DNA from: an uncultured archaeon
Lineage (GTDB): Archaea; Asgardarchaeota; Lokiarchaeia; Sigyniarchaeales; SOKP01
Direction: 5' to 3'
DNA: 64,000 nucleotides
Assembly: GCA_964486045.1 (NCBI GenBank)
Contig: CAZALK010000004.1
Location: forward strand, 1 to 64,000
Shown here: in pieces, positions 20,874 to 63,778 of the stretch
Layout of the letters: every line of letters begins with the position of its first letter
Numbering within the stretch: position 1 is the stretch's first letter
The notes under the pieces: model-generated
The model's input: the letters and a program-made list of their open reading frames with translations, nothing else
What the model was told of the DNA's origin: nothing
The model's database searches: none
Made by a program: the position numbers and the translations under genes

Positions 20874-20886
20874 CGTGAAATAACCG
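20874..20886 (+). repeat. Half site CGTGAAA-TAACCG (leftmost copy seen)
   Basis: Exact; between convergent genes. Confidence 0.95.
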
Positions 20887-21072
20887 ACTAATGAGATAAA
20901 TCTCATAATTTTTATTTCACAGCATTACCCAATACGGGAAATTAGGATCTGGAATTATTCCTTCTTCAAGAATTTCAAATCTAAAAGCAACAGGAAAAGA
21001 TTATTATGAATTAAATTGATGTCGTTCTAGGGAATTTGTTTCCATATAAGCACTTTTTAAAAGAGCCCAATT

Positions 21073-22191
21073 TTATGAAAGAAATTTAGATAATATCGAT
21101 GGATATATTTTATCATCATCTAAAATTTCAAGAGATTTAATATTCCATTTTGCAAATAAAATTCTATTTATATTACCAAATTCTTTCTTTATTTCAATTT
21201 CATTTATCTCTTTTTTATGAATAAAGTATTCATGAATTATGAAATCAATAAACCTTAAATATTTTTGAACTAAATACGGTTTTTGTCGGAATTCATTTAC
21301 CTGTTCATTGATTTCTTCTGAATAAGAAGGAGTTAATGTATTTAATGGAATTGACGGTTTTTTTTCATGATTAATACCCTCTTCAATTATTTTTATTTTT
21401 GAAAAAATTTGTTTCTTGAATTCTATATTACCAATTAATTTCAAATTAACATAATTTTTAAAATGATATGAAGATAAATGAATAGTTAAGCTTGCGATTT
21501 CTGCAATTGTTATCAAAGAAAATTGAAATACTCGCAGAATTTGATAATATTTTAGTTCAGAAAATTTTTCTTCTTTTTGATGTTTTATGTCGTCTTTTAT
21601 TAAATTATAAAGATTTCTTAAAATCTTTATTCTTCTAAAAGGATCTTTTTCTAAATAACTATTTGATAAAGTTACTTCAAAAGTTTTGCTTACTTTATCC
21701 ATTAAATGGGAAAAATCTTCAATTCTTGAATATGTCTTTAGACTAAAACTTCCTTTCTCTCGTTTTTTAATTCGTTTAGAGAATTCACCTATATTAAGCA
21801 ATCGTATGTTGAAGCTATCAGCGAATTGCTGTACTGTTTCAGGTACGCTTTCTCTTAAAATTAATAAGTGATTGATTTCTAATATTGTTAAAATTCCTTT
21901 ACAACGCAATATCTGGGAAAAAATTTGCTCAGATCTATGTTTACAATCTATTAAAAAAGTATTTTTTTCCAAATATTTTCCAAATAAAATACCATATATA
22001 TCTAAATCAGTAACTTTTATTTTATCATAGCTTTCGCCATATTCACTAATTTTCTGTCTTATTGCATACAAATTAAGTCTGGAATAAACTAAATACCCTA
22101 AATCCCATAAAAATTGATGAGCATCTCGTTCAAGGGCAATTCCTTTATAATTTTCCTCTTTATCATTTTCAACTATTTTTTTTTGTAGCAT
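21073..22191 (-). CDS. Putative PD-(D/E)xK restriction-like nuclease
   Basis: KGIALE..LWDLGY...TDLDIYG...LIDCKH. Confidence 0.7.
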   Translation of the reverse strand: MLQKKIVENDKEENYKGIALERDAHQFLWDLGYLVYSRLNLYAIRQKISEYGESYDKIKVTDLDIYGILFGKYLEKNTFLIDCKHRSEQIFSQILRCKGILTILEINHLLILRESVPETVQQFADSFNIRLLNIGEFSKRIKKREKGSFSLKTYSRIEDFSHLMDKVSKTFEVTLSNSYLEKDPFRRIKILRNLYNLIKDDIKHQKEEKFSELKYYQILRVFQFSLITIAEIASLTIHLSSYHFKNYVNLKLIGNIEFKKQIFSKIKIIEEGINHEKKPSIPLNTLTPSYSEEINEQVNEFRQKPYLVQKYLRFIDFIIHEYFIHKKEINEIEIKKEFGNINRILFAKWNIKSLEILDDDKIYPSILSKFLS

Positions 22192-22194
22192 ATT

Positions 22195-61574: not shown

Positions 61575-62204
61575 ATGAAATTGAAAATAAAGGGTGAAAT
61601 TATCAAAAAATTAATTAATTATTCAGAAAAATCGTTTCCAAAGTATTCTTCTCAAATATTAAATTTGGCCAATAAAAATTCTCAAGCTACAAGACCTAAA
61701 AATGTTGGCCAAATGTCTGAACTAATAAAACAATTTAGAAATTCAAATCCTCATGGCTCATTATCTGATTGGGAATCTTGGTATAAATCGAGAAACTTAG
61801 GAAAAATAAAAATAGCGACTAATAAAATTTCTAAGATGGTAAAAAATTTAAAAAATTCCATTGAAAACATTACAGATGAATTAATCGAAGTATGGGTTGA
61901 AGATTTAATTATAGATAAAACTTACTAAGGTTTAAATTTCCAAGATTCTATACTGGAGTTTCTCTCACAAACATTCAATATCGTATATAAACAATCAGAC
62001 CCTACAGAAGAATCTCAAGGGATTGATGGATATTTAAATGAATATCCAATTTCTATTAAACCAATTACTTATAAACAAAAAATTGTATCAAAGCAAGAAA
62101 AAATCGATGTGGAAATCATTTACTATATAAAGAAGGAAAGGAGTAAGGATATAGAAATTGAAGTAAGTGAAAATTTTATAAACAGAATTAGGAATCAGCA
62201 TTAA
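61575..62204 (+). pseudogene. MjaI-family restriction endonuclease interrupted by in-frame TAA at 61926-61928
   Basis: FPKYSSQILNLAN..QATRPKNVGQMSELI; the frame continues after the stop with EESQGIDGYL..PISIKPITY to a TAA at 62202-62204. Confidence 0.8.
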
Positions 62205-63510
62205 GATAAGATAGAATATCTTTACTTTTTCTTATAGAGTCCCCATATCTGATTGTTTTAGCATTTTTAAAAAAATTTGAAATCTGAAATTCCTTAAAAA
62301 TTATTTGGTCATACGATATAATTTGAAGTGCTTTTGATGATCCCATATATTCAAGAAAATTCTTTATTAAATCCCTAAATTCATTTTTATTTGAAAAATT
62401 TGAATTTATTATAATTATATAGTTTATGTAGTGATTCCACTTATCTTTTTCAACTAAATAATTTTGCGTAGGATTTTCTTTAATTTTGGATTTTAGTTCT
62501 TTTATTATCTTTTCCTCATTAAATTCTTTGATTTCGATTAATAAATAATCTAATATTATTTGATAATTTTTCTCATTTTCTAATATTATGATTCCTTTCT
62601 GTTTTTGATTTTCAAATTTAATTTTTAATCCTTCTTTTTTAGATTTTTGAAAAATTACATATAACATTAACTGGTAATCTCTAAAGTAGCCTATTCTACC
62701 TTGTTTTATTTTATCCTCGATAATTTTTTCAAAATCTTTATTGATTTCATAACCAACCCCATTTCGACAGAGAGATTTTGCTACTTTCAGCGTTGTTCCT
62801 GATCCTAAGAAGGGATCTAGTATTTTATCGCCAATAAAAGAAAACATCCTTATTAACCTATAAGGTAATTCTTCAGGAAACATAGCAATATGCTCTTTTT
62901 GGATTATTCCTGGAAATCTCCAATGACCCACAAACCACTTTTTCCATTCGGTTAATGATATTTTTGATAATTCTTTTATTTGACGTTCAACTTTCCTCGC
63001 TTTACCATTATGTTTTTTAAAGATCAATATATGTTCATAATCAAAAGTCAATAGCCCATTCCTTGGATAATAAATAGAGCCCATCAAAGAACAACCACCT
63101 GTAGTGTTAGTAGTACTTACTTTTTGCCAAATTATATCTCCTAAAAAGTCAAATCCTAATTCCAAACAATCATTTATGATTTGGCTTGCTATAGATAATA
63201 TTCTATACCGTCTATATTCTTTAGTCCGAAGATATTGATCCCCAATATTTATTATTATTCTACACTGTGGTTCAAGAACTCGATAACATTCAGTCCAGAC
63301 TTGCTTTAATCTCTCAAAATATTTTTTAAAAGAATCTGAGAACCCTATTTGTTCTTGTGAACCATAATCCTTTATTCTTCCGTATGGAGGTGAAGTTATT
63401 ACCAATTGAACTGTCGCATCATCAATTTCTTCCATATTTTCAGAAGATTTGAAATAAATTCTTGGTTCTTCTACATTTAACAATTCTTTTTCCTCATAAG
63501 AATAGTACAT
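62188..63510 (-). CDS. DNA amino-methyltransferase (beta-class N4-C/N6-A) with C-terminal extension
   Basis: VITSPPY precedes HIAMFPEELP..ILDPFLGSGTT..GYEIN. Confidence 0.92.
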   Translation of the reverse strand: MYYSYEEKELLNVEEPRIYFKSSENMEEIDDATVQLVITSPPYGRIKDYGSQEQIGFSDSFKKYFERLKQVWTECYRVLEPQCRIIINIGDQYLRTKEYRRYRILSIASQIINDCLELGFDFLGDIIWQKVSTTNTTGGCSLMGSIYYPRNGLLTFDYEHILIFKKHNGKARKVERQIKELSKISLTEWKKWFVGHWRFPGIIQKEHIAMFPEELPYRLIRMFSFIGDKILDPFLGSGTTLKVAKSLCRNGVGYEINKDFEKIIEDKIKQGRIGYFRDYQLMLYVIFQKSKKEGLKIKFENQKQKGIIILENEKNYQIILDYLLIEIKEFNEEKIIKELKSKIKENPTQNYLVEKDKWNHYINYIIIINSNFSNKNEFRDLIKNFLEYMGSSKALQIISYDQIIFKEFQISNFFKNAKTIRYGDSIRKSKDILSYLNADS

Positions 63511-63765
63511 TGAATAAATTTACATATTATTATTATTATTTATAATTATTAAAAGAAAAATAACAAAGGATTTTTTAATTCCTATTATTTTGTCATTTTC
63601 TGTTAACTTTAAATAGAATTATTACATATTAAAAAAAAAACTGGGCACATATTTATCAATTTAATGATATAGGTTGCCCCTTTAAAATCCGGATCTTCTA
63701 CAAAATGTAAGCTTTTCTTTAAAATCTTTCTTAACCAAGTCAATTATTTGTTTGAGCTCATACTC

Positions 63766-63778
63766 CGGTTATTTCACA
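63766..63778 (-). repeat. Half site CGGTTA-TTTCACa (12/13) with family-beta flank
   Basis: One mismatch; the following ~65 bp align with 49912-49978. Confidence 0.88.

Follow-up and report, generated by a model that had tools for sequence, protein, structure and literature searches.

A candidate defence-cassette platform of one-armed sites around a single palindrome in an Asgard archaeon

The 64,000-nucleotide stretch of DNA analysed here (the window: positions 1-64000 of the 300-kb contig C4 in assembly G000, from an uncultured Asgard archaeon) carries an array of short sites that mark off modules composed mostly of anti-virus genes and toxin-antitoxin pairs. Comparison of the array with its relatives indicates that the island is probably a chromosomal cassette platform, reshuffled by conservative site-specific recombination between one complete palindromic site and a set of one-armed half-sites, and we put the probability of this reading at about 0.7. 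An integron- or pdif-like platform that shuffles cassettes directed against mobile genetic elements had been proposed in a preliminary description of the window. That proposal is supported in its essentials, and from the pattern of sites and junctions we infer both the recombination itself and the class of enzyme.

G000 comprises 5.18 Mb in 45 contigs at 31% G+C and originates from marine sediment. It was compared with 36 congeners (members of the same genus), other GTDB genomes and 93 metagenome contigs. Congeners with the same sites have been deposited as Asgard metagenome-assembled genomes (MAGs) under the labels Promethearchaeota or 'Candidatus Hodarchaeota', and the presence of Ras-family GTPases and a Roadblock/LC7 protein in G000 fits an Asgard assignment. 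Full-text literature searches found neither the motif nor such arrays described in Asgard archaea.

Half-sites around a single full site

The array is built from three forms of site. The full site, F, is the 20-mer CGTGAAA-TAACCG-TTTCACG, with both arms around a core; half-site A-c consists of the arm CGTGAAA and the core TAACCG, and half-site A-c' of the same arm and CGGTTA, the exact reverse complement of that core. F, at 32642-32661, is the sole 20-mer with the core TAACCG in the genome and the point at which polarity switches: the six sites to its left all carry the arm on the + strand, and every arm to its right lies on the − strand. Shuffled versions of the window are expected to contain 0.00-0.02 exact 13-mers per pattern, against 10 found for each. 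All 20 exact 13-mers of the 5.18-Mb genome fall within C4 20874-67249, and the count outside this interval is 0. The array extends about 3.5 kb beyond the window, since exact copies continue to C4 67249, the sites there being at 65141, 65971 (one mismatch), 67249 and 67386 (two mismatches).

These observations agree closely with the preliminary description. Its 16 exact 13-mers were all recovered at the same positions, as were the near-exact copies at 39922 and 63766 (one mismatch) and at 42048, 54380 and 60642 (two mismatches), and the complete palindromes at 32642 (core TAACCG) and 54314 (core ACTACG). The first 20.8 kb of the window, said to lack the motif, holds just two CGTGAAA heptamers, both inside genes and with unrelated cores. 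Sites lie between genes or overlap stop codons without exception, and the arm itself donates the TGA stop of three genes (25351-25353, 42088-42090 and 50046-50048). The genome-wide scan that had been suggested finds the 13-mer confined to the island and not spread evenly, and the claim that half-sites radiate from one complete site not only holds, with the strand switch at 32642, but can be put more strongly than it was, as the polarity counts below attest.

Beyond the 13-mer, the flank profile retains only W-T before the arm, giving a total conservation of 13-15 bp. As W-T is conserved, we take the arm to be 9 bp and F to be a 24-bp dyad (W-T-arm-core-arm-A-W) with a 6-bp spacer. The base that follows TAACCG is A in 79% of half-sites, whereas an absent second arm would begin with T, which argues that half-sites are not eroded full sites. 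The orientation of the TAACCG core is mixed on both sides of F in G000, the two exact reverse complements being about equally frequent on each side. Cores of this kind are hard to explain by protein binding alone and would be natural for a region in which strands are exchanged.

Among the congeners, the 13-mers are present in 17/36, and reversed-pattern controls gave zero hits within the genus; A-c' was found in none of the other genera searched. In 19/36 congeners, two of which (G006 and G023) are single-contig genomes, no TAACCG-core sites were found. The exact F 20-mer was found in 11 GTDB assemblies, on a single contig of each; 9 are Asgard-labelled, and one of the 11 hits is a chance match in a Bacteroidaceae repeat. 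It is also present on 93 metagenome contigs, chiefly from marine sediment. No assembly that carries F has it on more than one contig. One occurrence outside Asgard labels is L039 (JANBVM010000001.1), a 75-kb contig of 26% G+C from a MAG labelled Patescibacteria, on which four + sites, two linker modules (described below), F and one − site make up a complete array; this contig or element is very probably of Asgard origin and was assigned to the wrong bin. We also noted two F-like copies 82 bp apart on another contig (L391 320-415; G061:C61), each with a different decayed arm (TTTCGCT in the first, CCGTAA in the second).

Polarity is as strict in these genomes as in G000. On F-carrying contigs, the arm is distal to F at 49/49 half-sites in G000 and the GTDB genomes and at 124/124 half-sites (102 of them exact) on the 93 metagenome contigs, or 173/173 in all, and polarity is uniform on 13 of 14 multi-site contigs that lack F. 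A strictly bipolar arrangement around one palindrome, together with the dif-like architecture of F and its 6-bp spacer, would also suit polar replication or segregation signals, such as Ter fork traps or KOPS directed toward dif, held by selection around a terminus-like point, and the cumulative GC skew of the window does turn near 50 kb. That turn is, however, about 17 kb away from F, and neither the two core orientations nor the mosaic flanks described below would be explained. Since the sites span about 47 kb and are absent from 19/36 congeners, G006 and G023 among them, such signals are excluded as an essential device, and we regard this explanation as highly improbable. F as the essential dif was rejected on the same absence.

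The array appears to occupy one chromosomal locus with rapid turnover of cargo, because flanking genes are conserved while the cargo differs: genes flanking the G000 array have homologues beside the arrays of G018, G002 and G019, and array genes are almost wholly unshared between species in both protein and DNA comparisons. The commonest family appears in at most 4 of about 20 genome arrays and at most 8 of 104 F-bearing loci. The comparison of relatives called for in the preliminary description thus finds the same sites at apparently the same locus, with almost entirely different genes between them. Viral contigs scanned with 14-mers yielded over 200 single hits, which is chance level, and no fetched contig carried two sites; no virus or plasmid donor of cassettes was found in these scans.

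In the window, the six + strand half-sites left of F are an outermost A-c at 20874-20886, A-c' at 23591-23603, A-c at 25349-25361, A-c at 26472-26484, A-c' at the start of an element of about 49 bp at 28839-28887, and A-c' at 30698-30710. All six are exact copies, and the one at 25349 supplies the TGA stop of the gene at 23824-25353. The 49-bp element consists of the half-site followed by N7, TTTAAAATAATCTAGTTAATT and a degenerate second arm, and similar − strand copies are found right of F at 36275-36322 (A-c' at 36310-36322) and 46545-46592 (A-c' at 46580-46592). The remaining − strand half-sites are A-c at 38770-38782 (exact); A-c' at 39922-39934, whose single mismatch gives AGTGAAA; A-c at 42080-42092, which provides the stop of the gene at 42088-43566 and is accompanied by a degenerate copy at 42048; A-c' at 43650-43662 and A-c at 46367-46379 (both exact); a gene-free linker at 49899-50050, in which A-c' (50038-50050) and A-c (49899-49911) are separated by 126 bp and the A-c' arm is the source of the stop codon of the gene at 50046-50759; A-c' at 56202-56214 (exact); a pair of linker length at 60504-60654, made up of an exact A-c (60504-60516) and a degenerate A-c' (60642-60654); and A-c at 63766-63778, which has one mismatch and whose distal flank shares homology with the linker's 3' part. 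A second full palindrome with the same arms and the core ACTACG lies at 54314-54333, and no cognate half-sites of this dyad were found in G000.

Mosaic junctions and a proposed exchange mechanism

The flanks of F and of the half-sites are mosaic. Sequences beside F form 92 left clusters (of 98) and 97 right clusters (of 102), and the 96 contigs with both flanks give 95 flank combinations; in the eight cases where one flank of F is common to two contigs, the other flank is unrelated in all eight. Half-sites behave in the same way, with 95 pairs sharing one flank (17 distal, 78 proximal) and 0 sharing both, and in alignments of these pairs identity reaches the 13-mer and ends there. When contigs are compared with one another, 17/53 of the internal ends of matches of at least 90% identity are at a site in both contigs, against a baseline of only 1.5% of sequence within 12 bp of a site. 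Gain, loss or reordering of modules with breakpoints at the core had been named as the pattern to look for in relatives, and homology breakpoints do fall exactly at the sites.

Whole cassettes can also be followed. A 1.2-kb cassette, L351 2657-3897, is 91% identical to L362 1522-2757 and bounded by sites at both ends; its neighbours are unrelated in the two contigs, and it stands right of F in one and mirrored left of F in the other. The G000 paralogues at 28913-30396 and 42127-43608 show the same mirror placement across F. A separate observation concerns a gene-free element of about 345 bp with a G+C-rich end, which follows an A-c site four times in G063, the sequence before the arm differing each time. 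Copies are positioned at L050 4823-5178 and 14153-14506, L051 6481-6836 and 17708-17798, and L009 10690-10952, and the element recurs in another species, G012, at 98% identity, far above genome similarity. Candidate identities for it are a small RNA gene and a mobile non-coding cassette.

Some modules carry two sites and no gene. In this linker module, A-c' and A-c are 123-127 bp apart, for a total of 149-153 bp; the 16 copies found are spread over 10 genomes, with three in C4. Nine linker sequences form one family at about 75-80% identity and the rest are unrelated to it and of the same length, as is the interior of the pair at 60504-60654. F itself can be part of this unit: in G002 and a contig from AMOR, F is the A-c site of a linker, and the left flank of F in G000 retains about 50 bp of linker homology. 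No conserved fold is present in the linker (−2.6 kcal/mol, and no meaningful covariation, with support for 1/23 predicted pairs). This agrees with the earlier suggestion that short sites are used and not folded attC hairpins, and marks the sites as being of a double-strand type. For lack of a conserved fold, a structured RNA or folded DNA was ruled out as the nature of the linker, and it matches no Rfam family.

In the mechanism that we propose, which the comparative data constrain well, a dimer-forming recombinase, encoded elsewhere and most likely of the tyrosine type, would bind the arms and exchange strands in the core. Two sites would react efficiently only if, once their cores are aligned, a good arm of each falls on the same side; F would then have every half-site as a partner, and a half-site would have others of its own type. 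Reaction of F with a circular intermediate carrying a half-site (A-c-X) would insert the cassette beside F and regenerate F, and reaction of F with a half-site of inverted core would invert the block that separates the two, so that it comes to lie on the opposite side of F and F has moved. Two half-sites of the same type would give excision if they lay on one side of F and inversion across the centre if they lay on opposite sides. Every permitted reaction would keep one F, leave the arms distal to it and place the junctions at the core. Pairs that would duplicate F, yielding a second F and an armless site, should be poor substrates, because they would offer one good arm per strand exchange.

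Junctions at the sites would fit equally well with non-conservative or single-strand insertion by a nuclease or transposase of, for example, the HUH type or a homing-like system, in which cassettes would be pasted at the arm/core boundary and F would be the unoccupied target. One arm suffices at 173/173 sites, as in one-ended or single-strand systems, strict polarity around one point could reflect a strand-specific process, and the array has no linked tyrosine or serine recombinase. Against such an insertion machine, there are no target-site duplications (7 orphan cores were found in the island against about 10 expected, which is background level), no conserved hairpin is present at the sites or in the linker, and no transposase-like family recurs in the arrays. 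Moreover, the perfect dyad symmetry of F about a 6-bp spacer is a hallmark of dimeric conservative recombinases, and a one-strand nick site would not require cores that are exact reverse complements. We consider insertion of this kind unlikely.

Three narrower schemes were tried and rejected. Nested insertion with a 6-bp target duplication fails on the order of core types, which does not nest, as well as on the background level of orphan cores. L329 and L335 were compared as a simple inversion pair between F and a half-site, and the predicted flank did not match. Core orientation tracks gene orientation in 11/15 cases in G000, with no correlation in other genomes.

Candidate enzymes and other sites with the same arms

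The preliminary description supposed that the recombinase is encoded elsewhere, and this fits what is found. Searches with PF00589 and PF00239 detected no tyrosine or serine recombinase on the 300-kb contig, the end of the array included, and no recombinase-like or transposase-like family recurs among the open reading frames (ORFs) beside F in the 104 loci. G000 encodes five tyrosine recombinases, on contigs C18, C29, C1, C23 and C25, of which those on C18, C29 and C1 were profiled across the congeners. The gene at C18:67235-68158 is the archaeal XerA equivalog (247 bits against a curated cut-off of 220) and is single-copy in 33/36 congeners at 76-90% identity; the C29 and C1 enzymes, present in 0/36 and 5/36 congeners, are strain-specific or sporadic. 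Of the three profiled, XerA alone is thus conserved across the genus, and Xer/dif-type tyrosine recombinases act on sites laid out in the same way as F, with two arms 6 bp apart (PMC2958812). XerA is our leading candidate for the enzyme that may act at the sites, a tentative assignment that we hold at somewhat less than even odds. A search of G000 for a canonical archaeal dif (11-6-11, TAA..TTA) returned 95 AT-rich matches, none standing out.

The arms of F are not restricted to the island. G000 has 11 copies of the dyad CGTGAAA-N6-TTTCACG, no two with the same core, and each of the 36 congeners has 3-11 copies; the spacer is invariably 6 bp. In addition to F, the G000 copies are at C1 397464, C2 296668, C5 254597, C7 89001, C9 189559, C10 38457, C13 58254, C20 71493, C23 20516 and, in the window, C4 54314. 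These other-core dyads are single copies in intergenic positions, usually 10-90 bp downstream of the stop codons of ordinary genes; their neighbours include genes for an acyl-CoA dehydrogenase, Ras-like GTPases, a major facilitator superfamily transporter and TFS. Many of the cores are shared across species, the one with GGATGG being single-copy in 19/36 congeners, and among syntenic copies the 20-mer stays constant as the sequence around it diverges. Because other-core dyads occur throughout the genus, the arm appears to be recognised by a protein that the whole genus shares, and is not exclusive to the island. TAACCG is the only address with a large array. A mini-array is found at the GAGGTG dyad (C9 189559), which has a cognate half-site 1.6 kb to the right, at 191196, on the predicted strand; the enclosed segment (C9 189559-191208; L017 6560-8215) encodes a 75-residue membrane protein and a 309-residue protein without a family.

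Same-arm palindromes that are syntenically conserved 10-90 bp past the stops of ordinary genes would also suit the idea that the 13-mers are protein binding sites that do not recombine, serving as a ParA partition site or centromere, as operators for a repressor of defence genes or in chromosome organisation, with module borders arising as a secondary effect. A ParA-family gene starts 205 bp downstream of F, and the arm resembles a parS half-site; an oligonucleotide cited in the literature carries the same heptamer. ParA is, however, near F in just 3/104 loci, and nothing else is conserved there. Binding by itself leaves unexplained why homology ends exactly at the site, why cores are reverse complements and why polarity holds at 173/173 half-sites; core and gene orientation, moreover, are uncorrelated outside G000. 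On balance, binding without recombination seems to us quite improbable, more so than the insertion machine considered above.

If the sites do recombine, the other-core dyads invite a broader proposal, namely that the genus possesses a multi-address landing-pad system. A host recombinase, XerA or another, would read the 9-bp arm at some 15-20 single-copy palindromes whose unique 6-bp cores would act as orthogonal addresses, TAACCG being the platform for defence cassettes. We find this extension possible but rather doubtful. Were it correct, the array could not delete its own entry point, because its one-armed sites would preserve one F, and the system would have a design not described for cassettes in any domain.

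Several findings count against recombination at the sites or against XerA as its agent. No recombinase is linked to the array. Known archaeal XerA sites have 11-bp AT-rich arms of the form TAA-N6-TTA, not CGTGAAA (PMC2958812), and XerA is encoded as well in genera with few or no CGTGAAA palindromes. The conserved single dyads beside ordinary genes show that the arm-binding protein has another role. One contig without F, L067 (G011:C15), is the sole breaker of polarity, with a − site left of two + sites (568, 3981 and 13520); it could represent abutting arrays, a circular replicon or an unrelated inversion. Homologous cassette genes are found in both orientations relative to the arms, with different core types, which indicates that other processes also act. 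Finally, strict core homology cannot make mixed cores from an array with one orientation per side. As a uniform array cannot yield the core mixture, our model needs two-site modules such as the linker as a seed; a circle with a linker would introduce the two orientations of the core together and so remove the difficulty.

Cargo, parallels and implications

The modules correspond to recognisable functions in several cases. The first gene right of F, at 32866-33819 (+ strand), encodes a ParA-family ATPase and leads a cassette (32866-35705) with three further ORFs that have no assignment. It is followed by an OLD-family ATPase-TOPRIM nuclease (36438-38702, +) and by a Septu cassette (40017-42042, +) comprising PtuA (40017-41270, E 3e-145) and PtuB (41257-42042, E 8e-67). 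The gene at 28913-30396 (+) codes for a 489-residue protein of no known family, and its paralogue at 42127-43608, on the other strand and mirrored across F, is 62% identical in amino acids and 71% in DNA. Further right are a STAND-like NTPase with a C-terminal DUF4268 / PDC-S11 domain (43772-46327, +); a three-gene cassette (46625-49868) for a 369-residue protein, a CARF-like protein with a winged helix-turn-helix (47784-48452) and a 429-residue protein with a weak HepT-like match; a − strand cassette (56266-60320) for a 189-residue protein, an SMC/Rad50-like ATPase (56938-59259) and an Mre11-like phosphoesterase (59256-60320); and a cassette (60714-63510) with a 212-residue ORF, a fragment of an MjaI-family restriction enzyme (61575-61928) and an N6/N4 DNA methylase (62188-63510). 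Modules beyond 64 kb hold toxin-antitoxin-type genes of the MNT and PIN kinds, and many further modules encode proteins without any family match. Of the functional units named in the preliminary description, OLD, PtuAB, the Mre11/Rad50-like pair and the restriction-modification unit (MjaI and methylase, 61575-63510) stand, whereas the 'nuclease pair' at 21073-23409 has no family match in Pfam or PADLOC.

No tRNA or Rfam family was found in the island. None of the contig searches with the ParA, OLD and 489-residue proteins returned more than a 6.4-kb contig that is colinear with the window. Defence-type genes also lie left of the array, at about 11-20.8 kb, where there are no sites; those at 11737-20854 encode an HNH protein, a leucine-rich repeat protein, a DUF4268 protein, an MvaI/BcnI restriction enzyme and two methylases. 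The island is therefore larger than the array, and some of its defence genes are not cassettes. Past the end of the array, direct duplications were noted at C4 72696-73194 and 75771-76269 (99.4% identical) and at 66881-67204 and 68388-68711 (93%), the latter taking in the 3' end of a gene for a 368-residue protein.

Across the arrays, many A-c' half-sites are followed at +5 to +12 after the core by A and T bases in a TTTAAA-like pattern reminiscent of an archaeal TATA box, and a leader of about 33 bp is conserved after A-c' sites, recurring in 7 genomes. This suggests that cassettes may carry their own promoter directly behind the site. The commonest cassette protein near F, found in 8/104 F loci, is represented by alignment A4 (L309 294-1043, L329 4139-4681, L368 12099-12785 and five more). 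It is 180-249 residues long, has no Pfam match and contains a motif, G-[VI]-x-x-A-[VI]-A-S ... P-[IV]-[IV]-D, that resembles a helix-hairpin-helix; judged from the alignment, it may be a DNA glycosylase-like defence protein.

Integrons, which have been reported in archaeal MAGs (PMC9668308), offer a close comparison in overall plan: in both, a chromosomal stack of promoter-poor or self-contained cassettes, each delimited by a site, accumulates hypervariable cargo at a primary site that is regenerated. In contrast to integrons, there is no IntI beside the primary site, on the 300-kb contig or in the 104 loci; the sites are 13-bp half-sites and not attC elements of 57-141 bp that fold as single strands; and cassettes occur in both orientations on both sides of a primary site that is a perfect dyad, whereas integron cassettes are stacked in one orientation downstream of attI/Pc. 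The pdif modules of Acinetobacter plasmids, acted on by XerC/XerD, share short sites with 6-bp spacers around modules of 1-4 genes, a recombinase that here too would be encoded by the host and unlinked, neighbouring cores that are often inverted (in G000, nine sites alternate between 36310 and 50038), and modules that recur in new contexts with junctions at the sites. They differ in being plasmid-borne and two-armed, while in our array, which is chromosomal, F alone has two arms and every other site keeps one, distal to F, and in that the archaeal host has a single XerA, whose action at the sites is that of a candidate.

Integrative mobile elements exploiting Xer (IMEX) at dif, such as CTX, TLC and VGJ of Vibrio and the gonococcal island, also lack a recombinase of their own and pile up at a palindromic site with a 6-bp spacer. 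As with those elements, a full site is regenerated, F being on one contig per assembly, and one-armed hybrid sites are left behind. F is nevertheless not the essential dimer-resolution site dif, and its arms are unlike those of known archaeal dif; the inserted units are 1-5-kb cassettes and not phages, they accumulate on both sides, and many other addresses with the same arms exist. In the shufflons of IncI plasmids, where Rci acts on sfx sites, a core and one conserved arm likewise limit pairing, and blocks invert without loss. Shufflons, however, are small, lie inside pilV with rci adjacent, have no complete site and shuffle protein ends, whereas here the segments are complete, unrelated genes and no recombinase is adjacent. 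Tycheposons and other tRNA-anchored islands of Prochlorococcus resemble our array in that successive cargo elements leave arrays of partial attachment sites; theirs are partial tRNA genes accompanied by element-encoded tyrosine recombinases, neither of which was found here. Unlike a ParABS system, where a ParB or other centromere-binding protein encoded with ParA binds linked centromere repeats, the locus has a ParA homologue near F in few arrays, as given above, and the ORF after ParA has no family match and is not conserved near F.

Site-specific cassette platforms are a known kind of system, and there is a real chance that the one described here is of a distinct design. If our reading is correct, it would be a second way, besides integrons, to collect and reshuffle cassettes at a fixed chromosomal site, one that operates with no dedicated integrase gene and in which the logic of 13-bp half-sites protects the entry site. 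If XerA is the enzyme, a housekeeping recombinase of dimer resolution would have been recruited for archaeal genome plasticity, as has happened in bacteria. Short sites with orthogonal cores might also find use as recombination tools. Because most cassettes lack a family assignment, the arrays form a catalogue of candidate new defence genes.

For the biology of these archaea, the platform would explain in concrete mechanistic terms why defence islands are hypervariable. Asgard archaea stand near the eukaryotic stem, and the mechanisms by which genes may flow among them are of special interest.

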